The notes beneath the pieces were generated by a model, which did not search any database, had not been told where the DNA came from, and saw nothing but the letters and a program-made list of their open reading frames with translations. The position numbers were made by a program, and so were the translations under genes. From an uncultured Candidatus Sumerlaeota bacterium (GTDB lineage Bacteria > Sumerlaeota > Sumerlaeia > MWCT01 > JAUWMI01), in NCBI GenBank assembly GCA_964454265.1, contig CAYVXD010000002.1, positions 888 to 64,887 on the forward strand: a DNA stretch of 64,000 nt. Reading direction: 5' to 3'. Position 1 is the stretch's first letter; every line of letters starts with the position of its first letter. Positions 6,529 through 52,083 of the stretch are shown here, one piece after another.

Positions 6529-8370
6529 CTACGGAATCGCGAGATAGTCAATCGCAACGCTGTCCATGTAGATGGTGCCGCCCTGCGCCGAGCTGAAGTC
6601 GAGCAGGTCAAGCGTCACAATGAATCCATCCTGTCCGGCCGTTGGTGAGCCAGGGAGAATTGGGGTCTCCCAGTAGACGTCGTAGTCAGTTCCACCAACT
6701 GTCGGCATTGCTCCTGGGCCAGCGCCCTGGCTGTTCAGCTCCATGGTCTGCGTCATCTGGCCGTCTTCATTCTGGATACGGAGCCTGACCTGTGGCATGG
6801 TGTTGCGTGCCACGTCACTCGCACACCTCAAGGTGTAGCTCGCACGATAGAGCTTATCCACTACATACGTAAGCTCGTTTGCCGTGCCACTGGACTGCCA
6901 CCATCCATAATTGGCATCCGCAGTGGTGCTAGCCGTGATGGAGAGCGTGCCAGTGCCTTCTCCGCCTGACGTCACCGGGCCAAATCCTACGTTGGTAACG
7001 AATCCCCAGTTGGAAAATTCGCCGCCACTGGCGTACGACTTGACCAATGTGCCAAGTGCCGGAAACGGGAACCGCTCTACAGTCACGGTATCTACATAGT
7101 GCGTTCCATACTGCGCCACGTCAAAGTCAAGCATATCAAAAGCCACACCCAGACTGCCGCTCACCACAGGCGCAAAGTAGCAGGTATATTCTTTCGTTGT
7201 TGGATCTGTGGGCAAGGAGTTGCTGTACGAGCCTGAGGCATTCACCACCTGCGTTGCTGACTCGAGTGATTGATCCTGCACCCAGCGCATACGGAACTGC
7301 GGATTCTGAGCTGCACTTGCCTGATTCGAGGAGACTTCGTACGTTGCACGGTATACGTTGTCTGCTACGTAGGCAAGTTCTGACGGCCCGGTCCATAGCC
7401 CTACGCGGTGCGTGCCATCATTTGCCGAGCTGACGCTTATCCGGCCACCACTATAGCTGGACGATGCCCCTGAGAATCCAGAACCACTCAGCGGCAGGAA
7501 TCCCCAGCCCTCCATGCTTGAATCATACGTATATTCCTTGACGAATGTAACTGGCGTTGCGGTGGGCGTCGGTGTTACGGCTGGTGTAGGAAATGCCATT
7601 GCATCGAGCTCCACCTGCCCGGGAATACTCTGCGCACTCGCGTCAAGATAGAGGCTGAACGTGCCGCCTGATGTATTGTATGCTATCAGGTCCCCATCAT
7701 CATAGAGCGTAGAATTCAACCTGGCTGCTGCATCGAAGGAGAATATCCACTCGGTATCACTCTCGCGACTGAAGGCATTGACATCTACCTGAGCTGGTAC
7801 TCCTTCAGCTGAGCCGTCAAAGTCAAGGCTGGCAGAGAACCCGCTCCCCGTGGTAAAGTGCACCATGTCCTCATCAGCTACCAGGCCTACCACGGGCAAC
7901 CGTGCATCTTCTTCAAGAGAGAATGAGAACTCGAACGGAGAGACAGCAATTACGTCTACTGCATCCAGATTCACCCTGGCTGGCAGGCCGTTGGCCGAGC
8001 CGTCCCACAGCAGGCTGATGCTCACTCCATTCCAGACCAGGAGGTCTTCATCTGCGTAAACCGTGCCGCCGATCTTTACATCTTCTGAAAGCGAGAAGAC
8101 CAGCAGGTCTTTTTCTATTAAATCCACGGCATCAATATTCACCTGTGGGGGGAGCAGGCTGGTTAAAGGCGAGCCATAGAGCGCATACGCGCCCACCCCA
8201 TCTGTATCTACCAGCTCATGGTCTGCGGGCGACAGGCTCACGTACGAGGCATCTTCATTATGCGAAAACACAAACGACGCCTCAGCAACCCCCGGCGGCC
8301 CAATACTCAGGCACACCAGCGCAGCCAGGAGCCAAAACGCTAGAACTAGCGATTGTCGATAATTTCTCAT
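6529..8370 (-). CDS. Secreted repeat protein: signal peptide, 4 x ~45-aa D/G-rich repeats, Pro-Thr linker (PTPAVTPTPTATP), then two ~150-aa beta-sandwich-like domains (GWGF... / NWGF...)
   Basis: 613-aa ORF with N-terminal MRNYRQSLVLAFWLLAALVCLSIGPPGVAEA (signal-like). Internal repeats read DLLVWNGVSISLLWDGSANGLPARVNLDAVD / DMVHFTTGSGFSASLDFDGSAEGVPAQVDVNAF, and so on. RBS GGAGA lies 8 nt upstream of the ATG at 8370. Confidence 0.75.
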   Translation of the reverse strand: MRNYRQSLVLAFWLLAALVCLSIGPPGVAEASFVFSHNEDASYVSLSPADHELVDTDGVGAYALYGSPLTSLLPPQVNIDAVDLIEKDLLVFSLSEDVKIGGTVYADEDLLVWNGVSISLLWDGSANGLPARVNLDAVDVIAVSPFEFSFSLEEDARLPVVGLVADEDMVHFTTGSGFSASLDFDGSAEGVPAQVDVNAFSRESDTEWIFSFDAAARLNSTLYDDGDLIAYNTSGGTFSLYLDASAQSIPGQVELDAMAFPTPAVTPTPTATPVTFVKEYTYDSSMEGWGFLPLSGSGFSGASSSYSGGRISVSSANDGTHRVGLWTGPSELAYVADNVYRATYEVSSNQASAAQNPQFRMRWVQDQSLESATQVVNASGSYSNSLPTDPTTKEYTCYFAPVVSGSLGVAFDMLDFDVAQYGTHYVDTVTVERFPFPALGTLVKSYASGGEFSNWGFVTNVGFGPVTSGGEGTGTLSITASTTADANYGWWQSSGTANELTYVVDKLYRASYTLRCASDVARNTMPQVRLRIQNEDGQMTQTMELNSQGAGPGAMPTVGGTDYDVYWETPILPGSPTAGQDGFIVTLDLLDFSSAQGGTIYMDSVAIDYLAIP

Positions 8371-8870: not shown

Positions 8871-10430
8871 ATGATTATTCACCGACGTGCAGCTCGTCAG
8901 GTTAAAGTTCGTGCCGTTATTGACACAGCAGTTTTCCGCGACAAGGGATTGGATAGCCTCGATCCCATCGCCTGTATTATCGGAGCACGTATTGTGGCTG
9001 ACTGTGCCGCCTTCGTTTATACGAATGCCGTTATCTCCGTTGTAAACGCAGGTATTGCCGCTGACTGTGCTGTTATCCCATGCATCGATTCCATCGTCTC
9101 CGTTGTTAGTGCAGATATTGCCGGTCACTGTGCCGTTGACACTCGAATCGATTCCATCCTCTCCGTTGTTATTGCAGATATTACCGGTGATCATACAGTC
9201 CCTGTTTGCTATGATTCCGGAACCACCATTGTTGTAACAGCGCAGGGCATCAAATTGGGATTTCTCTGCCACACCAGCGTGAATTCCGCTCCCCCGCCAG
9301 TCGCGCACGGTGCCATTGCGGATGGCAATGTTATATTGGGCACCGTTGACATAGATGCCATGGCCAGTGGTCCCTGCTGCTTTGCCAGGCCCAATTAATG
9401 CGTGACCGTTCAGGTCCAGCGTGACATTGTCGGCATCAATAGTGATGCCATTTGTGTTCTGCGTAGCCAGCGTGAGGTCGCCAGTCAGGCGATACATTCC
9501 GGGCTGGGAGATGCTGTAGGGCAGCTCGCTTATGAGAATATCCAATTGATTGTCCGCTACCGCATCCACCGGTGTCGTGTTTCCGATCAAGGTGTTCCCT
9601 GAGACGATATTGTCAGCACCGTCAAGGTCCAGCCCGCGGTCATTATCCGTACAATGATTATCGCTAATACGATTGTCAGAACCAGTAGCGAGTATGCCAG
9701 CACCATCTCCTCCACTGCCGTTCGAGTCGCAGGTATTATCCACTACCCGGCAATCACTCGACACCTGTATTCCATCGCCGGTGTTACTCTGGCAGGTATT
9801 GCCGCTGACCGTGCAGCCTTCGTATGTATGGATGCCGTCGCCTGTATTACTACTGGAGGAATTGCCGGTAACTGTGCTGCCATTCCATGCAAATATGCCG
9901 TTGCCTCCGTTTTCACGGCAGGTATTGCCGCTGGCAATGCTGCCATGGCGTACATTGATGCCGTAGTCTTCGTTAGCTCTGCAGATATTGCCGCTGACTA
10001 TGCTGCAAGCGCCTGTAATGATGCCACCGATACCGTTGTTATAACATCGCAATGCCTCAAACTGACAGTTTTCGGAGAGTATGGCATTAACCCCATTCCA
10101 CTGCCAGTCGCGCACGGTCCCATTGCGTACGGCAATGTTGTATTGAGCTCCGCTGACCACGATTCCAGTGCCATATCCCCCTGCTGCTTTACCAGGCCCG
10201 ATTATCGCATGCCCGTTCAGGTCCAGGGTGACATTGTCCGCGTCAATAGTGATGCCATGCGTATTAGTCTGGGTTGTGGATAGGTCATCAACTACAATAT
10301 ATGAACCGGAGCTGGAGATGGTGTAAGGAATCTCTGCGATGTCAATCTGCCCATCACCAGCCCAGGCAGCTGCCCCCAGCAAAAGACACAAACCAAGAAT
10401 ACAAGCCGTTGTTGTGATACGTCGTTTCAT
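8865..10430 (-). CDS. Secreted right-handed parallel beta-helix repeat protein (pectate-lyase/NosD-like fold), two tandem modules
   Basis: 521 aa with a signal peptide (MKRRITTTACILGLCLLLGAAAWA). It shows repeated G-N-x-C-x-x-N-x-x-D-G-I beta-helix rungs. The N-terminal ~85-aa module (GDGQIDIAEIPYTISSSGSYIVVDDLS...NGHAIIGPGK) recurs internally (ELPYSISQPGMYRLTGDLT...NGHALIGPGK) and at the N-terminus of 10616..11668. Confidence 0.75.
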   Translation of the reverse strand: MKRRITTTACILGLCLLLGAAAWAGDGQIDIAEIPYTISSSGSYIVVDDLSTTQTNTHGITIDADNVTLDLNGHAIIGPGKAAGGYGTGIVVSGAQYNIAVRNGTVRDWQWNGVNAILSENCQFEALRCYNNGIGGIITGACSIVSGNICRANEDYGINVRHGSIASGNTCRENGGNGIFAWNGSTVTGNSSSSNTGDGIHTYEGCTVSGNTCQSNTGDGIQVSSDCRVVDNTCDSNGSGGDGAGILATGSDNRISDNHCTDNDRGLDLDGADNIVSGNTLIGNTTPVDAVADNQLDILISELPYSISQPGMYRLTGDLTLATQNTNGITIDADNVTLDLNGHALIGPGKAAGTTGHGIYVNGAQYNIAIRNGTVRDWRGSGIHAGVAEKSQFDALRCYNNGGSGIIANRDCMITGNICNNNGEDGIDSSVNGTVTGNICTNNGDDGIDAWDNSTVSGNTCVYNGDNGIRINEGGTVSHNTCSDNTGDGIEAIQSLVAENCCVNNGTNFNLTSCTSVNNHP

Positions 10431-10560
10431 AGTGCCGTCCTCCTTCTCTTTGTCACTTTACTTTGCAGTTCTACGTTTCGCCGTCTTACGCACTGTTAAA
10501 CCAATACGAACACAAGATATTCCATACTCTCAAAATCCACCCACTCCCCTCCTTTCTCTA

Positions 10561-10616
10561 AACGGACTAACTGACCAACGGACTAACGGTCTCAACCGAC
10601 AAACCGGCCAACCAAT
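10561..10616. repeat. 8-bp-periodic array (AACGG/AACCG nnn) x 7
   Basis: AACGG 10561, AACTG 10569, AACGG 10577, AACGG 10585, AACCG 10594, AACCG 10602 and AACCA 10610. It is preceded by CCTTTCTCTAAACGG, as in the other copies, and overlaps the stop of 10616..11668. Confidence 0.8.
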
Positions 10617-11668
10617 CAGAACGAGACGTTAAGCAAGTCGCCTGCACCCACCGTATTGCCACCAACAATATCGTAGTTTATGCCGTTTCCGCTGGCGCGA
10701 TTGCTGGCAATGTAGTTGCCCGTCGCCGGGTTGCAGTCAATCCCGCGGTCATTATCATTCACCAGGTTGCGTTCAATGCAATTGTCTGAACTCGTTGTGT
10801 GGATGCCCGCTCCATCTCCTGTACTGAAGCCGTTAGAGCCGCACGCATTGTCTACAACCCGGCAATCATAAGAGACTTGTATTCCGTCCCCTGTGTTGAA
10901 GCTGCAGTTATTTCCGCTGACCATACTGCCACCGGTATTGATACCGTAGTATCCGTTGCTGCCGCAGCTATTGCCAGTAACCGTACCGCCAGCCAGTACA
11001 GAGATGCCGTGGATCGTGTTGAACTGGCAGGCATTACCAATGACCGCACATCTTTCCTCTGCTTCAATGCCGTCCGCACCGTTTGAGCGGCAGGCATTGC
11101 CGCTGATCGAACAGCCTTCCCCCGCATCGATACCGTCGTCGCCGTTGCTCATGCAGACGTTTCCGCTGATTGCACAGCCATGGGATGCATAGATGCCGTC
11201 GTACGTGTTTTCATAGCAGGTATTACCGCTGACCGTACTGCCAGGGCCTGCAATAATGCCGCGGGAACCGTTGTTATAGCAACGCAGGGCCTCAAACTGG
11301 CTGTTGTAGGCGTAATCGCCATTAACGCCCGTCTGACGCCAGTCGCGCACGGTGCCATTGCGGATGGCAATGTTATATTTGGTACCATTAACAAAGATGC
11401 CATGGCCAGTGGTGCCTTCTACTTTTCCGGGGCCAATTATCGCATGACCGTTCAGGTCCAGTGTTACATTGTCGGCGTCAATAATAATGCCATCTATGTC
11501 AGTCGCAGTTGTGGACAGGTCGTCAACTACAATATAGGAGCCGGAGCTGGATATAGCATAAGGAATCTCAGCAATGTCAATCTGTCCATCACCAGCCCAT
11601 GCCCATGCGCCCAGCAAAAGCGACAATCCAATTATGCAAGCAATTTTTGTAATACTTCGCTTCATCAT
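10616..11668 (-). CDS. Secreted right-handed parallel beta-helix repeat protein, paralogue of 8865..10430
   Basis: 350 aa. The N-terminal 85 aa are ~85% identical to the paralogue (MMKRSITKIACIIGLSLLLGAWAWAGDGQIDIAEIPYAISSSGSYIVVDDLSTT...). Beta-helix rungs follow, such as GNTCYENTYDGI, GNVCMSNGDDGI and GNACRSNGADGI. Confidence 0.75.
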   Translation of the reverse strand: MMKRSITKIACIIGLSLLLGAWAWAGDGQIDIAEIPYAISSSGSYIVVDDLSTTATDIDGIIIDADNVTLDLNGHAIIGPGKVEGTTGHGIFVNGTKYNIAIRNGTVRDWRQTGVNGDYAYNSQFEALRCYNNGSRGIIAGPGSTVSGNTCYENTYDGIYASHGCAISGNVCMSNGDDGIDAGEGCSISGNACRSNGADGIEAEERCAVIGNACQFNTIHGISVLAGGTVTGNSCGSNGYYGINTGGSMVSGNNCSFNTGDGIQVSYDCRVVDNACGSNGFSTGDGAGIHTTSSDNCIERNLVNDNDRGIDCNPATGNYIASNRASGNGINYDIVGGNTVGAGDLLNVSF

Positions 11669-44916: not shown

Positions 44917-46005
44917 TCAATCTCTTCGTGCGGCGCTATATAGCCAGTAGAGCACGGCAATAGCAACACTTGCGCCTGTTCCATAGAAGAACTGAGGGTC
45001 GAGTTTGGTGGCGAGAACAGTGAACAGCACTGCCAGGATCGCCATTACCACTGACAGCACAACGGCCTTATCGTACTTGCCGACCGGCGCCTGTCCCTTT
45101 TCCACTTCGCCAGAATGGCCGTTCACTAACATCTGGTAGCGGTTATCTTTATAGTGGTAGGAGATGAACCAGAGTGGAACGTAGATGAGCTGGGTATCTT
45201 TAATGTAGGTTGTGGTATCAACATCGGTGGCTCTCGCGAATTTTCGTAGGGCCAGGCGACGTTGGTATTCGATGATCTGGTTGCGGGTGTGAGTTTCTGC
45301 GTTTTCGCGAATAATCTGGCCGTTAAGGATTGGAAGCGATTTAGCCAGCTCGAGGCTAAAGGGCTGGCTGCCTTTGCGGAAGTCGGTCTGGGTGCTGGTT
45401 TGCTCGCCCAGGCCGAAGTTCAGGACAAATCCACCCCAGTCGGCCTCAACGGATTGGCTGCCTGGGTTTAATGCTTCCAGGCCAAAGTAACGTTCCGGAT
45501 CCTGGCGTGCATAAATAGCCCAGTTGAGCGTTTGGGTGAATTCGCCAATCACAGGTGCATCGTATGTATCCATTCGACGCGACCGGCCAGAACCGACCCA
45601 GCGCACTTGCTTGTTCAAGCCGGCCCAAAAGGTTCGCGCCTCAATAGTAGTTACCCAGAAGGGGAGGAAGAAACCTTCGGTGGTATCAAAGACGGCTTGC
45701 TCATCAAGGTCAGCCGCCTTGAGGAACCCTTTGCTCATCCATTCTTGGCAGATTTGCTGGATTTGCGCTTTTGTATACCTATTCGGAATTATTCTGTGGT
45801 TTTCGACCTTCACAATTCGGTTGAAGCCAGTAAGCATATTGGTGGTTCCGCAGTAGGAGCAGGAAATGAGATATTCTCCCTCCACGTACTTGATGGGTGC
45901 GCCGCAGCTCGTGCATTTGAGTGTCCTGGTGACTTCAGGAGTCTCGGCTTTTGCTGGAATGTTTTCTGACATTAGCGGTATTCCTCCCACGCAGCCTGCC
46001 GGCAC
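44917..46005 (-). CDS. Hypothetical protein with N-terminal double zinc-ribbon (CTSCGAP...CSYCG) and C-terminal TM helices
   Basis: 362-aa ORF. Cys pairs at the N-terminus and two hydrophobic helices at the C-terminus (AVVLSVVMAILAVLFTVLA / GASVAIAVLYWLY). Confidence 0.55.
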   Translation of the reverse strand: MPAGCVGGIPLMSENIPAKAETPEVTRTLKCTSCGAPIKYVEGEYLISCSYCGTTNMLTGFNRIVKVENHRIIPNRYTKAQIQQICQEWMSKGFLKAADLDEQAVFDTTEGFFLPFWVTTIEARTFWAGLNKQVRWVGSGRSRRMDTYDAPVIGEFTQTLNWAIYARQDPERYFGLEALNPGSQSVEADWGGFVLNFGLGEQTSTQTDFRKGSQPFSLELAKSLPILNGQIIRENAETHTRNQIIEYQRRLALRKFARATDVDTTTYIKDTQLIYVPLWFISYHYKDNRYQMLVNGHSGEVEKGQAPVGKYDKAVVLSVVMAILAVLFTVLATKLDPQFFYGTGASVAIAVLYWLYSAARRD

Positions 46006-46468
46006 GGAACTATACGTTTACCACAAGTTGAAATGTTAGCAAGCCAAAGACTCAACGCAAGGGAAAAGTTGCAGACGCACATTGAAAGAATTGTTGTAAC
46101 CATAGCTGACTAAGAGCCCGCTATTGCTCTGTTGAAAACCTTAGACCATACAAAAGAGGATATTGAAAATGATGGGTTCGCCACCTTGACGTAGCACGGG
46201 CGTCTCGCCCGTGTGGATTGACAACTATGGCACAAAGATCATCCGCCTAGGCGGATGCCACGTTATCAGAGCCACATTGACACTCCAAGTAGAATGGCGG
46301 TTCGATTTATTTCTGGCAGGATGTAAGGCTTTTCAACAGAGCATGCGTCTGTAAAAAAAGGATTGATTTTACGGATGCACAATGACATAAAATTATAACG
46401 TAATGCTGTCGCGGAAGGGCCTGATTCGTCTCAGCCTTTTCCATCCTTCCCTTGAGTTGACCAGTTGT

Positions 46469-46545
46469 CGGGGCGTAGCGCAGTTGGCTAGCGCGCAGCG
46501 TTCGGGACGCTGAGGTCGGGGGTTCAAGTCCCCCCGCCCCGACCA
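46469..46545 (+). tRNA. tRNA-Pro (anticodon CGG)
   Basis: 77-nt cloverleaf: acceptor CGGGGCG/CGCCCCG, U8-A9, D-stem GCGC/GCGC, anticodon stem CAGCG/CGCTG with loop TTCGGGA, T-arm GGGGG-TTCAAGT-CCCCC, discriminator A and encoded CCA. Plus-strand ORFs 46307..46552 and 46393..46671 overlapping it are spurious. Confidence 0.9.
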
Positions 46546-46868
46546 GATGCAACTTTGCGAATTTATGGGGTAATATGGCAGAAGATATTTATAAATGCTT
46601 GTGAGAAAGCAAAAATACAAAAAACAGTAACAGTCCATGCCCTCAGGCATAGTTTTGCAACCCACCTTCACGCCGGAGGCGCATTTTCAACTTGAGTGCG
46701 GAACTGACCTGAGGTACATTCAAGAGATTTCAGGGCATAAAAGTTGAAAATGCGCCTCCGGCGTGCAGTAAGACTACCGAAATCTATACGCAAGTGAGCA
46801 CTAAAGATATTGGAAGAATCAAAAGTCCACTGGATAGTCTGAATATAATCAAGGGGCGTAATAAGTGA
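46546..46868 (+). pseudogene. Truncated, frame-disrupted tyrosine recombinase/integrase remnant (C-terminal catalytic region only)
   Basis: Three frames together read ...IWQKIFINACEKAKIQKTVTVHALRHSFATHLHAGG / TDLRYIQEISGHKS / KTTEIYTQVSTKDIGRIKSPLDSL. This is the box II region of Xer/integron-type integrases (HxLRHxxAT...LGH...TTxIYTHV). The N-terminal ~3/4 of the gene is absent and the remnant starts 1 nt after the tRNA. Confidence 0.75.
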
Positions 46869-46916
46869 CAAAATTTGTCAATGCGAAGGGGACCTCTGGT
46901 TCAGCCAGAGGGAGGT

Positions 46917-46992
46917 ATATCCGAACATAGTTCGTCTATACCTCCAACTTAGGCGGATATCCGAACTCGGTTCGCATGTGAACGAGTTAGAT
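46917..46992 (+). promoter_or_regulatory. Two palindromic direct repeats ATATCCGAAC-nnn-GTTCG followed by core GTTAGAT, upstream of the ATPase gene (operator-like / attI-like)
   Basis: ATATCCGAACATAGTTCG 46917-46934 and ATATCCGAACTCGGTTCG 46957-46974; GTTAGAT 46986-46992 fits GTTRRRY and is the exact reverse complement of the ATCTAAC that opens both downstream attC-like elements. A 7-bp hairpin CCTCTGG/CCAGAGG lies at 46893-46911. Confidence 0.5.
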
Positions 46993-47106
46993 GCAATTGG
47001 ACAGGAAATAACACTGAAAAGGAAAATGCTGCGTGATGAGGAAAAACACAAAATTGGTAACAAGGTGTGGGAGAGTGTATCAAAAAGATGAACTTTCAAG
47101 GGGGAT

Positions 47107-48408
47107 GTGATGAGAGAAGGCATTGTTGATAGGGTAAAGAGAGAAAGAGAAACCTATTTCAAGGACAGATTTGGGTTAAAATCAAATCCCTTTATATTAT
47201 CTCCTTACGGTGATATCAAGAGACTTGCAAGAGTATTTGTGGATAGAAAAGAAGAAATTGAAAGGGCAGTTGTTACATGTTTAGAAGAGCCTCGGAATAT
47301 CCTTGTCTATGGCATGTTTGGAATTGGAAAATCTGCTTTCATTCTCAAATTACTTTATGAATTTGCTAAGGCAACATATATTCGTTCCCTCACATCGTAT
47401 GGCTATATAGGAGAGGCTACTCCTAAAGGCTTTGTTGCCCAAGCATTGTTGGGTTTGGCTACTTCTCTGACTGGAAATGGAAAAGCAGAGCAATACAAAA
47501 AGACGCTACTGGGTACCAGTAGAGTTAAAGAAATAGAAAAAGAAATAAGCGGAGAGATCGAAGGTGGAGTATTAGTGATGAAGGGGAAAGGTGGTGGAAA
47601 ACTTGCATTTACATCTGCAGAAATAATAGAGACAAATCTAGACCAGTTAAAACTACAAGCCATGTTTAAAGAACTCGTAAAAATATCAAAGCACAAAGCT
47701 GACCGGATAATAATTGCGATTGATGAAATGGATAAGCGAAGCGCTGCGAAAGTCCAGGAAATTATTGCGGAATGTAGAGGTTTACTGCACGAGTCCGTTT
47801 CGTTTATACTAACTACCTCCTTAAGAGCCATGATCTACAGAGCAGATGAACTTGGCAAGAAATTAGATGATATTTATTCCACTTTTTATGGTGCATTTGA
47901 TGAGAAAATCGAAATAAAGCCCTTCTCTTTAGCTGACTTATCTACATTTGAAGAATTGGTTGAGAAATCTTTAGGATCAGTAAGAATTTCCGGATTCGAA
48001 AAGGGAATAGTTCCATTCACTAACGACGGAATTGAATTCATAGCTAAACGGAGCCACGGAGTTCCCCGAGTGTTCAACCGAATATGTAGAGATGTACTTG
48101 ATACTGCTTGGCGTTTAAAGCTTGAACAGATCAATTCGGCGGCTGTTAAGTATTGCTTCAGGGTAAAAGGGAAAGAAATTTTAGAAAGTTTACCTAGAAA
48201 ACAACGAAAACTTATCGATTTAATAAATGAGCGAGGGGGAACACTAGAAAGAGTAGATGATAAGCTTGTTACAAAATATAAAGCAAAAAATAAACAGGCA
48301 GTTTACAGGCAACTTGGTTTTTTGGTACAGAACGATAAGATAATAAAAATAGAAACAGAAGAAGGCACAAATTATGAAGTGATACCCGAAATCAAGGAAG
48401 TAACATAG
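47107..48408 (+). CDS. Orc1/Cdc6-like AAA+ ATPase with C-terminal winged-helix domain
   Basis: N-terminal NPF...FVDRKEEIERAVVTCLEEPRNILVYGMFGIGKSAFI (Walker A), IIIAIDEMD (Walker B), ILTTS (sensor 1) and GVPRVFNRICRD (Arg-finger/sensor-2 region). The C-terminal RKQRKLIDLINERGGTLERVDDKLV...YRQLGFLVQNDKI is wHTH-like. The gene is AT-rich relative to its surroundings. Confidence 0.7.
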   Translation: MMREGIVDRVKRERETYFKDRFGLKSNPFILSPYGDIKRLARVFVDRKEEIERAVVTCLEEPRNILVYGMFGIGKSAFILKLLYEFAKATYIRSLTSYGYIGEATPKGFVAQALLGLATSLTGNGKAEQYKKTLLGTSRVKEIEKEISGEIEGGVLVMKGKGGGKLAFTSAEIIETNLDQLKLQAMFKELVKISKHKADRIIIAIDEMDKRSAAKVQEIIAECRGLLHESVSFILTTSLRAMIYRADELGKKLDDIYSTFYGAFDEKIEIKPFSLADLSTFEELVEKSLGSVRISGFEKGIVPFTNDGIEFIAKRSHGVPRVFNRICRDVLDTAWRLKLEQINSAAVKYCFRVKGKEILESLPRKQRKLIDLINERGGTLERVDDKLVTKYKAKNKQAVYRQLGFLVQNDKIIKIETEEGTNYEVIPEIKEVT

Positions 48409-48486
48409 AGGGGGGGAGTGTATCATAAATAGAGATAGGCAAAAAGCAAGCAGCAAAAATTTTGCAAGATTTGGACGACCAACTGC

Positions 48487-48560
48487 ATCTAACACGGGCT
48501 TTGCGGCTTACTGCATTCTCTCAAATGCTTCGCACTTCGTAAAGCCCAAGAACGTTATAT
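48487..48560 (+). repeat. attC-like imperfect-palindrome element 1 (74 bp) following the ATPase gene
   Basis: ATCTAAC(a)cgGGCTTTGCGG...CAAATGCTTCGCACTTCG...TAAAGCCC aagaac GTTATAT. The outer sites fit RYYYAAC / GTTRRRY-like, and the inner stem is GGGCTTTGCG / CGTAAAGCCC. Confidence 0.5.
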
Positions 48561-48576
48561 GAAATTGCTATGATAC

Positions 48577-49533
48577 ATGGGGGAAATTATGTTAGCTTTG
48601 TTTCTTGGAGCCGGCTTTTCTAAGTGGGCTGCAAATTTACCGGTGGCCAGTCAGTTCTTTGATTTTAACGTTGAACCTTCGGGGCCACGTGAGCTTAAAA
48701 AATTGGAGATTGTAAGGTCGTTAAAACATAATTGGGACAAATCACACCCGTATGGGCTTAGCGAACAATTCATTGTAGATGCATTGAAATTTGAGGAGAA
48801 AAAGAAAGAGGCGGTTCTTTGGTATATTGTTCGTAGGCTTTCGGAACCATTTATTTGGAAAGAATATCATGCACAGAAATGGCGCAGACATGTTTTGATG
48901 ATTGATGAAAATCGCAAATACGATAGACCAGGAGTCATTCAAGCACAAAAGTTTCTTAAGAAATATTCGACCCCATCTTTAGCTGGTATCATAACCACGA
49001 ATTATGATATCCTTGTTGAATATGCGCTTGGGACAAAGGGATTCAACTACGGTATCCCTAATCAAGCGCTTACAGGTCGAGGGCCGTATCCCGTTTCTCA
49101 GTGGAAAAATCCCGTTATACTAAAAGGCAATATCCCGATAGCGAAAATTCATGGTAGTATTTCATGGGATGAACATAATCAATATACAGATGGGAGGCAT
49201 GGTTTGACAGGTCATGCTTTGATTGTGGCACCAACGCCCGAGAAAGAATCATCAGAATCTTTGAGATTTGTTTGGAACTTGGCTAAAGAAATTCTCAGAA
49301 AAGCCACACGAATCATTGTTTTTGGGTTTGCATTTAACCCTTACGACACTTCCGTTCTGAATTTTCTAAAATCTGAAGGTAAGAACTTGGAGTCTGTTCT
49401 CTTGGTGAATATAGGATCCAACACTGAGGCGGCACGTATTCTGTGGCCACGCGCTAAAATTGTATCGACAATGCCGCCACCAGATGGGAATAAAGAGATG
49501 CAAAATTGGCAGAAGAAATGGCTAGGAATATGA
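48577..49533 (+). CDS. SIR2-like (SIR2_2 family) protein, putative NAD+-consuming effector
   Basis: LALFLGAGFSKWAANLP (GAGxS), IITTNYDILVEYAL (TTNYD with catalytic Asn) and IAKIHGSISWD (catalytic His). The gene starts 17 nt after element 1 and is AT-rich. Confidence 0.65.
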   Translation: MGEIMLALFLGAGFSKWAANLPVASQFFDFNVEPSGPRELKKLEIVRSLKHNWDKSHPYGLSEQFIVDALKFEEKKKEAVLWYIVRRLSEPFIWKEYHAQKWRRHVLMIDENRKYDRPGVIQAQKFLKKYSTPSLAGIITTNYDILVEYALGTKGFNYGIPNQALTGRGPYPVSQWKNPVILKGNIPIAKIHGSISWDEHNQYTDGRHGLTGHALIVAPTPEKESSESLRFVWNLAKEILRKATRIIVFGFAFNPYDTSVLNFLKSEGKNLESVLLVNIGSNTEAARILWPRAKIVSTMPPPDGNKEMQNWQKKWLGI

Positions 49534-49543
49534 GCCCAATTTC

Positions 49544-49619
49544 ATCTAACAGCATGTTTACGGTTCGCTACGCTCACCCAAATGCTTTCGGCACTTCGCA
49601 AACACGCAGGACGTTAACC
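49544..49619 (+). repeat. attC-like element 2 (76 bp) following the SIR2-like gene
   Basis: ATCTAAC agcatGTTTACGG...CCAAATGCTTTCGGCACTTCG CAAAC acgcaggac GTTAACC. It is colinear with element 1, shows compensatory changes in the inner stem (GTTTACG/CGCAAAC versus GGCTTTGCG/CGTAAAGCC) and keeps the loop block CAAATGCTTyCGsCACTTCG. Confidence 0.5.
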
Positions 49620-49819
49620 AAATTTGATATTGCCATTTTATGGGTTCGCAAAGCGTTTTAAGTGCGAGCATTTCCTGCCTTAAAATCCAGTAGCCGGGTA
49701 TGCCTTCCTGGTTTCATTAAGGGCCTTCTGCACCTGTTAATTGTGTTGAATTGCTGCGCCTATAATGACTATGGCTTGAAAGGTGATCCTTCCCCTTCAC
49801 TTTGTTCAGGGTCAGGATG

Positions 49820-49847
49820 AGGGGTCGGGGGTAGAACTCCCCGACCC
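49820..49847 (+). terminator. GC-rich hairpin GGGGTCGGGG-gtagaact-CCCCGACCCC (terminator-like; alternatively a degenerate tRNA 3'-end repeat marking the islet boundary)
   Basis: 10-bp perfect stem followed by TCAATTATTTG. It loosely resembles the tRNA T-arm/acceptor segment TCGGGGGTTCAAGTCCCCCCGCCCCGACCA. Confidence 0.4.
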
Positions 49848-50067
49848 CTCAATTATTTGCGTCAAGTGGCCAGTTAATCATTTGACATTTTCATATAGAT
49901 TGCCATGATGGTTGCGATTATCTGAATTGTTTACGATTCACGTTTTTGCAATAGAGCATTGGAAATCCCTCAAGCCAATCGCGTAAAGCCGCTTTTTCAG
50001 CGTGCGTTTATTAGATCGAGCAGGGATAGCCATAGGCTGAGAGTATCCTTGGTTTTAATGTGAATCC

Positions 50068-52083
50068 ATGGAAGAAAATGATCAGATAATTGCCCTGCAT
50101 GAGGCACGGGAAGGCACGGTTCCGGTATTACCTATTGCGCTTGGCTTTGCGCTTTCTGTAGTTTTGCTGCTCAACATCTACCTCAGTTCGCCCGATTCTG
50201 CCGCATACTACAGTGTGCCGCGTTCAATTCTAATTGATCACGATCTGGATTTTCAAAATGAGTATTTGTACTTCGAATTTCAACCCAATATGTTTTACCT
50301 CACAGGGCATCAACGCCTTTCGAATGATTGGCCGATTGGCGCAGGGCTGCTCTGGTTGCCTTTCTTTATACTCGCCCATCTTCTTGCGTTAGCCCTTTAC
50401 CTGCCCGGCATGCTCCCGAATGGTTATAGCACGGTTTACCAGCTGGTCGTGTCGCTGGGGATTGTGATATATGGATTATGCGGCCTTGTGCTGAGTTTCC
50501 GATTTGCACGCAGGTACGTTTCGGATCGCTCTGCATTATTCGCTGTAGGATTGGTAGTGTTTGGCTCGCCGCTGGGATTCTACCTTTACTATTACGACTT
50601 TATGTCACATGTGGTCTCGTTTTTTGCCATTTCGCTTTTTCTTTATCTCTGGGTGAGCACGTATCGCACGCGAACACTCCGGCAGTGGGGCACCCTCGGT
50701 CTGGTAGCGGGTTTGATGACGATGGTGCGGCCTCAGAACGTCTGTTTTCTTGTAGTCATTGTAGTCGAATATGTGATGGTGCTGCGCCGTGAGCTCCTGA
50801 GCAACAGCGCGGCGTTGAAGCACTACATAAAGGGGATCATGCTGCTGATTCTGGGCCTGGTAGTCGGTTTTCTGCCCCAGATGCTTTTCTGGCTTACCGT
50901 CTATGGGAGTCCAATTGCGTTTCCCAAGATGGAGGAAATGCACTGGTTCAGGCCCCGGGTGTGGGCCATGCTCTTTTCGCAATATCACGGACTGTTGGCG
51001 TGGTCACCAATCCTGATGCTAGTCTTGCCAGGACTGTATTTTATTTACAAGATGGAGAAGCCGGTTGGGGTGGCGCTCAGTCTCGCGCTGGTGATTCAGA
51101 TGTACCTGAACAGCGCGAATGAGGTCTGGTGGGCAGGGGGATCGTTTAGCAACCGGCGATTTGCTGACTATGCGTTTATTTTTGTTCCTGCGATTGCCCT
51201 TATGGTGCACAGAAGGCGAGGCCCGCTGCTGCCAATATTGTGCGTGGTTCTTGCCGCTTGGAACTGGCTCTTAGTAATTGCTGAGCGTGCTGGCGTGCTG
51301 ACATTGGATCATTTTGTTCCCTGGACAGGTGAATTCTGGCGCTCGCTGGTAGGATTGGCTATAGATCCGTTGCGCAGCTTTGGCGCAATGATCGGCAACT
51401 TCGGAGACGTCGCGATTCTCAGTCGCGTGCTTATTGGCATTGTTTTTGGAGCAGTAGTGTTCCTGGTCATTTATTTCTTTCAGAGACAAAAAAGGCACAA
51501 TCAATTGGCGAACATCGGCTCTGGATGTCTGATGGCCTATACCGTGCTTTTGGGCCTGAGCTTCATTGTTCTCATCCCCAATACCAGACCGATTGAGGCC
51601 GAGACCTTTTCCTATCAACTCTCTCGGACAAACCGCGTCCTGTGGAACAACTACTACGAGTACGGCTACTACTTGCTCATGAAACGCAAATACGACGAGT
51701 CAATCAGGGCATATGAAAAGGCTGTGACCTTGTGGCCGGAGCGTCCCTATGCCTACCGGTATCTTGGCACAAACTACTACCTGCTGGGACAGTATCGTCT
51801 GGCAGCTCAATATTGCCGTGAGGCGCTTGCTATTGACCCGGAATACCAGTCAGCAGCCCAATATTTGGCCGCGTGTTACAGGGCCATTCTAGCAGAAGAG
51901 CCGCAGAACCTGGCGCTGATGCTGGGGCTCGCGCGACTCTACAAACAGCTAGGCAACCTTGAACGATCAGAGATGCTATATCAGGAAGTATTAAGGCAGA
52001 ACCCGAACAATGCGACAGCACAGGAAGGAATTGCTGCAATCCGTACAAAGAAGAAAATCAGGCAATTCCCAGTCCAACCGTAG
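50068..52083 (+). CDS. GT-C family membrane glycosyltransferase (PMT/ArnT-like, GT39-type) with C-terminal TPR repeats
   Basis: 671 aa. The N-terminal 480 aa are polytopic membrane with an early conserved DxD-like loop (SSPDSAAYYSVPRSILIDHDLDF). The C-terminus has TPR helices (YEKAVTLWPERPYAYRYLGTNYYLLGQYRLAAQYCREALAIDPE...). Confidence 0.65.
   Translation: MEENDQIIALHEAREGTVPVLPIALGFALSVVLLLNIYLSSPDSAAYYSVPRSILIDHDLDFQNEYLYFEFQPNMFYLTGHQRLSNDWPIGAGLLWLPFFILAHLLALALYLPGMLPNGYSTVYQLVVSLGIVIYGLCGLVLSFRFARRYVSDRSALFAVGLVVFGSPLGFYLYYYDFMSHVVSFFAISLFLYLWVSTYRTRTLRQWGTLGLVAGLMTMVRPQNVCFLVVIVVEYVMVLRRELLSNSAALKHYIKGIMLLILGLVVGFLPQMLFWLTVYGSPIAFPKMEEMHWFRPRVWAMLFSQYHGLLAWSPILMLVLPGLYFIYKMEKPVGVALSLALVIQMYLNSANEVWWAGGSFSNRRFADYAFIFVPAIALMVHRRRGPLLPILCVVLAAWNWLLVIAERAGVLTLDHFVPWTGEFWRSLVGLAIDPLRSFGAMIGNFGDVAILSRVLIGIVFGAVVFLVIYFFQRQKRHNQLANIGSGCLMAYTVLLGLSFIVLIPNTRPIEAETFSYQLSRTNRVLWNNYYEYGYYLLMKRKYDESIRAYEKAVTLWPERPYAYRYLGTNYYLLGQYRLAAQYCREALAIDPEYQSAAQYLAACYRAILAEEPQNLALMLGLARLYKQLGNLERSEMLYQEVLRQNPNNATAQEGIAAIRTKKKIRQFPVQP

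Follow-up and report, generated by a model that had tools for sequence, protein, structure and literature searches.

A probable decayed integron-type locus with two cassettes and an Xer-like recombinase remnant behind a tRNA-Pro gene in an uncultured Candidatus Sumerlaeota bacterium

Organisation of the locus

We analysed a 64-kb stretch of DNA (the window) from an uncultured Candidatus Sumerlaeota bacterium; all coordinates refer to the whole window, and positions 46000-50400 were read directly. Our subject is an island at 46546-49619, which starts directly 3' of a tRNA-Pro(CGG) gene (46469-46545, plus strand; called by ARAGORN, 66.7 bits with the Rfam tRNA model). The order on the plus strand is tRNA-Pro, the remnant of a tyrosine recombinase gene (46579-46868), a repeat-rich spacer ending in GTTAGAT, open reading frame 1 (ORF1), an imperfect palindrome E1 (48487-48560), ORF2 and a second palindrome E2 (49544-49619). 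About 200 nt past E2 there is a terminator-like hairpin, followed by housekeeping-looking genes. The G+C content is 40% in the island versus 50% on either flank, i.e. the composition is foreign. A promoter scan gave no enrichment.

We consider it very probable that the island is a small, decayed gene-capture locus of the integron type with two independent cassettes. Cassette 1 (46987-48554, plus strand) holds ORF1 and E1 and is delimited by Pfam matches, box complementarity and a match to another locus, L255. Cassette 2 (48555-49613, plus strand) holds ORF2 and E2 and is delimited by Pfam, PADLOC and homology to loci L253 and L254. An attI-type insertion site precedes them at 46911-46992 on the same strand, recognised by its repeats, its GTTAGAT core and the same architecture in relatives.

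Two or more attC sites within 4 kb that have no integron integrase close by were counted as a cluster of attC lacking an integrase (CALIN), a term of IntegronFinder (PMC4889954). The starts of E1 and E2 are 1057 nt apart and the only recombinase is a dead one, so if the two sites are attC the island is a two-cassette CALIN-like array. It is called CALIN-like because no intact recombinase, and no second recombinase homologue, was found anywhere in the window.

The elements and their family

E1 and E2 can be aligned colinearly; across 114 alignment columns, flanks included, the mean identity per column is 80%. This agrees with the first-pass annotation of this DNA, which had read both as attC-like elements opening with ATCTAAC; the motif is indeed at both 5' ends (48487-48493 and 49544-49550) and fits RYYYAAC. 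The 3' boxes are GTTATAT in E1 (48554-48560) and GTTAACC in E2 (49613-49619), as annotated, but their fit to GTTRRRY is partial only; the family consensus is GTTAGGC. A conserved internal 20-mer listed for both elements is exact in E2 but has no match in E1, where the block reads CAAATGCTTC--GCACTTCG and 2 nt are deleted relative to E2.

Each element has a paired outer box, one unpaired base, an 11-bp stem, a loop of 32-34 nt and five unpaired bases before GTT. In E1, R'' (48487-48493) is followed by the stem (48495-48505 with 48538-48548), the 5-nt spacer (48549-48553) and R' (48554-48560); the corresponding parts of E2 are R'' at 49544-49550, the stem at 49552-49562 with 49597-49607, the spacer at 49608-49612 and R' at 49613-49619. 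Three stem pairs are changed on both sides between the two elements and stay paired, which upholds the compensatory changes described earlier for the inner stems. Complementarity of the outer box reaches about 15 nt (CCAAyTkCATCTAAC / GTTAkATGmAATTG). The bottom strand folds slightly better than the top strand in both elements, with z = -2.4 against shuffled sequences for E1, and single-sequence folding is weakly informative for the pair. A search of Rfam in E-value mode matched the tRNA alone; Rfam holds no attC family.

Relatives in a genome collection were sought with the loop-motif pattern CAAATGCTTN{1,3}GCACTTCG. The hits were mostly chance singletons from all phyla, and about 14 of the 119 loci proved to be real relatives by blastn, the full-length ones being 85-88% identical over 57-80 nt. 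They are labelled Desulfosporosinus, Atribacterota, Neomarinimicrobiota, WOR-3, Stahlbacteria, Bipolaricaulota, Thermotogae, Chloroflexota and Peptococcaceae, together with two archaeal metagenome-assembled genomes (MAGs). A stricter motif picked out at least 120 contigs in a metagenome collection; 100 of them were searched with a covariance model, R1, which found at least 125 copies, many in same-strand arrays.

A second covariance model, R2, was trained on 125 metagenomic copies with the window excluded. E1 reaches 90.0 bits (E = 4e-24) with R2 and 91.6 bits with R1; the R2 score of E2 is 71.7 bits (E = 1.5e-18). E1 was thus called by both models and by its fold, E2 by R2 and by box complementarity. 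R2 detects nothing else in the window at E<=10, and R1 with filters off finds no further element in 40-56 kb. Because of these scores, the covariation described below and the lack of other matches in the window, the element is real and structured, and it is not a dispersed repeat in the window.

Among 115 distinct copies both helices covary: 81% of the cells are paired, compared with 27-41% when the partners are slid, double changes occur in 17 of 20 pairs, and none of 500 shuffles reached the observed values. The R helix is 74-78% paired and covarying. The structure is under selection, as the first-pass annotation had proposed from E1 and E2.

The consensus of the boxes, GCCTAAC/GTTAGGC, is the canonical core. 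Around it the geometry is different: in 103-106 of the 115 sites a single nucleotide separates R'' from the stem and five separate the stem from R'. The spacer is A-rich on the coding strand, and the stem is a regular 11 bp. The extrahelical bases of attC, for which inspection of the bottom-strand fold had been suggested, are not present in the family stems at these sites; the asymmetric 1/5-nt spacer and the regular stem are found instead. For comparison, canonical sites from the Vibrio superintegron and class 1 arrays, including aadA1, aacA4, dfrA14 and the Vibrio repeat VCR, were read by eye; they have 5 / 5-6 nt spacers and 1-2 extra bases in L''. Automatic scoring of arm complementarity recovered one canonical attC only, and a proxy model of canonical attC was dropped, as MAFFT lost the L'/spacer register across the VCR and class 1 types. 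Neither R1 nor R2 detects any Vibrio, class 1 or class 2 attC. In the loop, the conserved motifs CCCAAAT ... ACTT surround small variable hairpins.

One side observation concerns the loop. In the clinical class 1 attCs of dfrA14 (L262 800-975) and dfrA5 (L263 6100-6310) the variable loop holds CTTCGTTCGCTTCGC, which resembles the family loop CACTTCGTTCGCC...CTTCGCAC. This likeness may be a coincidence or may reflect a shared origin of cassette sites.

Evidence for cassette recombination sites

Context, box signature, shared cassettes and a natural insertion are four independent lines which show that E1 and E2 act as cassette recombination sites of the attC type. Regarding context, a co-oriented ORF of at least 100 amino acids (aa) ends just upstream of 59 of 74 elements, and the mirror arrangement is seen in 13 of the 74. 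Most of these elements do follow ORFs, a point that the first-pass annotation had marked for checking. The cargo of the arrays (MazF, PIN, GNAT, ThsB-TIR, HEPN/NTP-transferase and restriction-modification genes) is typical of cassettes.

The box signature links each element to the one before it. R'' with its flank is complementary to the R' of the preceding element at a mean of 10.5 of 15 positions, versus 8.0 of 15 for its own R'; the preceding box is preferred in 19 of 24 adjacent pairs, the own box in 3, and there are 2 ties. The 5' box of E2 is complementary to the 3' box of E1 at 13 of 15 positions and to its own at 9 of 15, and the start of cassette 1 at the GTTAGAT site, GTTAGATGCAATTGG, is complementary to the flank of E1's 5' box at 14 of 15. 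Complementarity of R'' to the preceding R' is the classic cassette signature, and the same chaining of boxes is visible in the Vibrio superintegron.

A natural insertion was found by comparing loci L242 and L244, which have the same recombinase (P0040) and the same flanks and differ by a 574-bp unit. The unit, at L242 8116-8689 and corresponding to a point near 4745 in L244, consists of a 145-codon ORF and an element of the same architecture. It lies between ...ATATAACTTG|TT... and ...GAACG|TTATGATAGG, with GTT at both junctions, and is inserted at the GTT of a repeat-bearing site just after the recombinase gene. Together with the cassettes shared among loci, which are also bounded at GTT, this insertion polymorphism bears out the cassette architecture proposed from the window.

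The two loci come from different samples of one Joint Genome Institute (JGI) series. The related locus L243 differs further downstream, where it has extra genes including a DDE transposase.

The two cassettes

ORF1 (ATG, 47110-48408) encodes a 432-aa P-loop NTPase resembling KAP and STAND proteins, with Pfam matches to KAP_NTPase and AAA_16. ORF2 (48589-49533) encodes a 314-aa SIR2-like protein, matched by Pfam SIR2_2 and PADLOC SIR2. Each ORF had been described as beginning 17-25 nt after the putative crossover. For ORF2 this holds with the in-frame ATG at 48577, which is 23 nt past the G of E1's R', but the database start, the ATG at 48589 that follows GGGGG, is 35 nt past it; for ORF1 it does not hold, since the ATG is 124 nt after GTTAGAT. 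This leader of cassette 1, whose conservation in L255 is 91%, contains a 21-codon ORF, MLRDEEKHKIGNKVWESVSKR, at 47027-47092, past the GTT core and ahead of ORF1.

Cassette 1 recurs in L255 with 91% nucleotide identity and its own element, and with a different downstream gene. The SIR2 cassette recurs in other arrays at 79-83% nucleotide identity, with other neighbours. The match to L253 and L254 (83%) begins at 48554, which is the G in the GTT of E1, and stops within E2; in L253 it spans 147-1204, against 48554-49605 in the window, and the cassette lies directly after an attI-type site made of a repeat and GTTAGAT. In L247-L249 the SIR2 cassette follows a different attC, and the upstream cassette varies among otherwise identical contigs. 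The cassette is thus seen in three different contexts, with boundaries at GTT.

Because each occurs elsewhere with different neighbours, ORF1 and ORF2 are two independent cassettes and not an obligate pair. Of the earlier suggestion that a defence pair was delivered as two cassettes, the two cassettes stand and the delivery as a pair does not.

L253 and L254 belong to a MAG labelled Methanophagales, and their SIR2 cassette is the one that is 83% identical to that of the bacterial window. If the binning is right, the cassette may have been shared across domains.

The insertion site and the recombinase

Two direct repeats of the form ATATCCGAAC-n3-GTTCG, at 46917-46934 and 46957-46974, stand ahead of GTTAGAT (46986-46992), at the coordinates given by the first-pass annotation. 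The insertion site is made up of a first palindrome (46911-46945), a second repeat (46956-46980) and the GTTAGAT core. The same two-repeat arrangement ending in GTTRRRY lies right after the recombinase stop codon in L101, L183, L185, L209, L218, L240, L242/L244, L245, L257 and L259, where two copies of a TATAnCGAA...TTCGnATAT-type palindrome or repeat precede the core. The attI-like nature that had been guessed from the window is confirmed by this architecture at about ten other loci and by the natural insertion at such a GTT in L242/L244.

The recombinase remnant was identified by six-frame translation and tblastn and ends at the stop codon 46866-46868. It is split into three frame pieces, reading ...VHALRHSFATHL / LECGTDLRYIQEISGHKS / SKTTEIYTQVSTKDIGRIKSPLDSL, which correspond to residues 288-321, 318-338 and 336-362 (about 288-362 in all) of the 373-aa homologue of L101. 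It is the C-terminal part, about 80 codons, of an IntI/Xer-like tyrosine recombinase, in line with the type assigned earlier, and it is non-functional. The remnant is 78% identical to the C-terminus of the full-length L101 recombinase (tblastn), which likewise lies between tRNA-Pro(CGG) and an element. Homologues or their C-terminal remnants are found upstream of the elements, on the same strand, in L101, L183, L185, L209, L218, L240, L242-L244, L245, L257 and L259.

The frame is broken by a perfect 23-nt inverted repeat, CACGCCGGAGGCGCATTTTCAAC, found by repeat and motif search at 46669-46691 and 46743-46765. Each arm is an insertion of about 22 nt, and the two bracket exactly the codons LECGTDLRYIQEISGHKS. 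The sequence has these 2 matches in the window versus 0 expected, and the corresponding remnant in L218 does not have it.

At E<1e-40 the recombinase family numbers over 7800 proteins, which have a length of about 345 aa and carry PF13495 and PF00589. Five members score above the cutoff of NF040815 (recomb_XerA_Arch; 239-263 bits versus 220), a model whose product name is 'site-specific tyrosine recombinase/integron integrase'. The integron integrase model TIGR02249 gives 218-242 bits versus its cutoff of 265, matched in two separate stretches. Six members (L101, P0040, P0051, P0099, P0037 and L183) were compared with 2a3v (VchIntIA), Vibrio IntIA, IntI1 and IntI2; of these six, P0051 (L240) has a cultured host, Thermodesulforhabdus norvegica. 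All six lack some 42 residues between KGxKDR and HxLRHS, the IntI-specific domain near patch III. An N-terminal extension of about 70 aa is conserved in the family and is not found in the IntIs. No IntI-like protein was found on about 135 element-bearing contigs.

The IntI-specific domain is regarded as necessary for attC recombination by Messier & Roy 2001, as cited in PMC9668308. The lack of this domain in the family and the lack of extrahelical bases in its sites are mutually consistent, and we infer a link between the two. In the VchIntIA-VCR structure described by MacDonald et al. in 2006, the segment that is missing here reportedly includes the residues holding the extrahelical bases.

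In L209 elements are also found upstream of the recombinase gene (8127-8233, 9381-9490 and 10550-10624, minus strand), and in L218 an element at 1852-1942 lies about 10 nt upstream of the recombinase remnant. The recombinase gene itself may sit inside an array at these loci.

Comparison with known systems

The locus shares much with integrons and CALINs (PMC4889954). In both, co-oriented and mostly promoter-less ORFs are each followed by an imperfect palindrome with RYYYAAC...GTTRRRY, crossover is at G|TT, R'' is complementary to the remainder of R' at the start of its own cassette, a dedicated insertion site lies beside the recombinase gene, and toxin-antitoxin, GNAT and defence genes are frequent among the cargo. 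However, the linked recombinase here is without the IntI domain and has the N-terminal extension, the 1/5-nt spacer replaces the canonical spacers and the extrahelical bases in L'', the loop motifs are conserved, and the family models miss the known attCs. The IntegronFinder authors counted just 50 non-IntI recombinases near attC in complete genomes, with no systematic association (PMC4889954).

In the 'reverse' integrons of Treponema (PMC3607928) recombinase and cassettes are co-directional, as here, but the Treponema enzymes are recognised IntIs, while TIGR02249 stays below its cutoff in our family. The archaeal integrons of Ghaly et al. 2022 (PMC9668308) are likewise arrays of attC from uncultivated archaea, CALINs for the most part; the study places attI 'immediately downstream of intI' and reports cassette sharing across domains. 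It found no more than six archaeal IntIs, each defined by the IntI-specific domain, which is absent from the present family with its thousands of relatives.

The XerA and XerC/D resolvases are alike in that NF040815 is the best above-cutoff NCBIfam model and that the family is collinear with the XerA structure 5hxy. They differ from it in that here there is no dif context, while an N-terminal extension, a repeat-bearing insertion site and variable cassette arrays are present. SIR2-, TIR-, HEPN- and restriction-modification-type genes are found here as single cassettes, which recalls the defence systems known as integron cassettes (bioRxiv 10.1101/2024.07.02.601686); that study deals with IntI-type sedentary integrons of Vibrio and relatives. 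Full-text literature searches returned no paper tying attC cassettes to XerA-like enzymes, which is not proof of absence.

We file the locus as integron-like in mechanism and not as a demonstrated member of the integrons sensu stricto, because the IntI domain and the extrahelical-base geometry are both absent. It lies beyond textbook integrons in two respects, the Xer-like recombinase family and the variant geometry of the sites.

Alternative explanations

The reading of the island as an integron-type locus served by an Xer-like enzyme has to be set against several results that weigh against it. Single-sequence folds of E2 are no better than those of shuffled sequence, and the stem wobbles of the family (45 top-strand, 65 bottom-strand) favour neither strand clearly. 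The IntI-specific region is absent in all six members compared; as the remnant (residues 288-362 or so) misses this region, its absence from the window's enzyme is deduced from relatives that are 52-78% identical. The assignment of MAGs to archaea or bacteria follows database labels only, and the enzyme is tied to the sites by linkage only. An ordinary CALIN, in which a canonical IntI elsewhere makes and moves the cassettes and the Xer-like gene is a bystander or serves, for example, island integration at tRNA genes, is an alternative that we regard as rather unlikely. It would fit the canonical core of the sites, the ability of IntI1 to recombine diverse archaeal attCs (PMC9668308), the commonness of CALINs (PMC4889954), and the presence of a neighbouring tRNA-Pro(CGG) at three loci and of a neighbouring tRNA-Ser(GGA) at two. 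It does not account for the physical joining of the insertion site to the 3' terminus of an Xer-like gene or remnant at about ten loci of different lineages, nor for a natural cassette insertion exactly at the Xer-linked site. It is also at odds with the lack of IntI on the element-bearing contigs, with a geometry devoid of the extrahelical bases that the extra domain of IntI binds, and with the failure of R1 and R2 to match anything in Vibrio, class 1 and class 2 arrays.

That the whole segment is a tRNA-targeting genomic island, with E2 and the tRNA flank as attR and attL of a phage-type integrase, is very improbable. The tRNA 3' end with its adjoining integrase remnant and the lower G+C content would suit such an island, as would a weak direct repeat between 46542-46569 (the tRNA 3' end) and 49617-49644 (just after E2's GTTA). 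With 20 of 28 positions matching, however, the repeat does not stand out from the many chance pairs listed alongside it, the majority of related arrays have no tRNA beside them, and E1, the arrays and the polymorphism at the level of single cassettes are left unexplained. An island of this kind may describe how the whole platform arrived. We find it scarcely credible that E1 and E2 are palindromes like the repetitive extragenic palindromic (REP) sequences, terminators or RNA stability elements. They are imperfect palindromes just past stop codons, and the loop CCCAAATGCTTCGCACTT is unusually conserved for the variable region of an attC; but there are only two copies in 64 kb, neither has a T-run or was called by the terminator scan, the box pairs with that of the previous element, which a cis-acting hairpin would not need, and GTT marks the boundaries of both the polymorphic insertion and the cassettes that loci have in common.

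Two other classes of element were tried and rejected. The sites are folded palindromes of about 75 nt and not 28-bp 11-6-11 modules, which does not fit dif-like or pdif modules, and the lack of dispersed copies does not fit the ends of insertion sequences (IS) or miniature inverted-repeat transposable elements (MITEs).

Proposed mechanism and implications

Comparison of the loci shows a cassette to be a discrete unit that begins with the TT of one GTT core and extends to the G of the following core, and shows it entering between G and TT of the insertion site that lies after the recombinase gene. By analogy with integrons, the site of the circular cassette would fold as a single-stranded hairpin with a paired R box, the 11-bp stem and a branched loop, and the recombinase would exchange this hairpin with the double-stranded insertion site. 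The cognate enzyme would be the co-oriented XerA-like family without the extra domain of IntI, which, judging by linkage, may read the asymmetric 1-nt/5-nt spacer in place of extrahelical bases. The role of the Xer-like recombinase is inferred from linkage at about ten loci and from one natural insertion. The two cassettes of the window were acquired independently and would be promoter-less. As the enzyme of the window is destroyed, they could move only if another copy acts in trans; the earlier statement that the array is now fixed therefore holds in cis only, as a trans-acting enzyme may be encoded elsewhere in the genome.

For the window, this means that the ATPase and SIR2 genes are separately acquired mobile cassettes stranded by a destroyed recombinase, and neither an operon nor a co-delivered defence pair. 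More generally, the detection and theory of integrons rest on the IntI-specific domain as that which enables the use of folded attC, and here a large Xer-like family that does not have the domain is consistently linked to arrays which show every behavioural hallmark of integrons. Should this linkage prove functional, some of the surplus of attC clusters without an integrase among uncultivated bacteria and archaea would be accounted for, the range of known routes for gene sharing across domains would grow (as with the SIR2 cassette in the Methanophagales-labelled MAG), and the evolution of hairpin recombination from Xer would become accessible to experiment.

We suggest, tentatively and with more doubt than confidence, that there is a second widespread kind of integron in bacteria and archaea of anoxic sediments, in which a XerA-like enzyme without the I2/extra domain of IntI captures cassettes with attC-like hairpins of another geometry, at a site joined to the 3' end of the enzyme's gene. 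In that case 'CALINs' of uncultivated lineages would in many instances be complete systems missed by current tools, and the family would be a living relative of the transition from Xer to IntI.

Additional observations

The arrays often start just 3' of a co-oriented tRNA gene. At three loci tRNA-Pro(CGG) is upstream in the same orientation (46469-46545 in the window, L101 2211-2284 and L080 3743-3818). These three comprise bacterial-type and archaeal-type tRNAs and are for this reason taken to be host genes. At two loci the gene is tRNA-Ser(GGA) (L184 1031-1116 and L151 3369-3457), followed 15-30 nt past the tRNA by one GAGTTCGTATATACCG repeat and GTTAGNN, without a recombinase. The positions suggest that the whole platform may target tRNA genes or use their transcription.

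The hairpin past E2 (14 bp, 49818-49851) is terminator-like and resembles the T-arm of tRNA-Pro (85% to 46514-46533). This hairpin and the 28-nt direct repeat at the edges of the island may be scars of the island junctions or may be due to chance.

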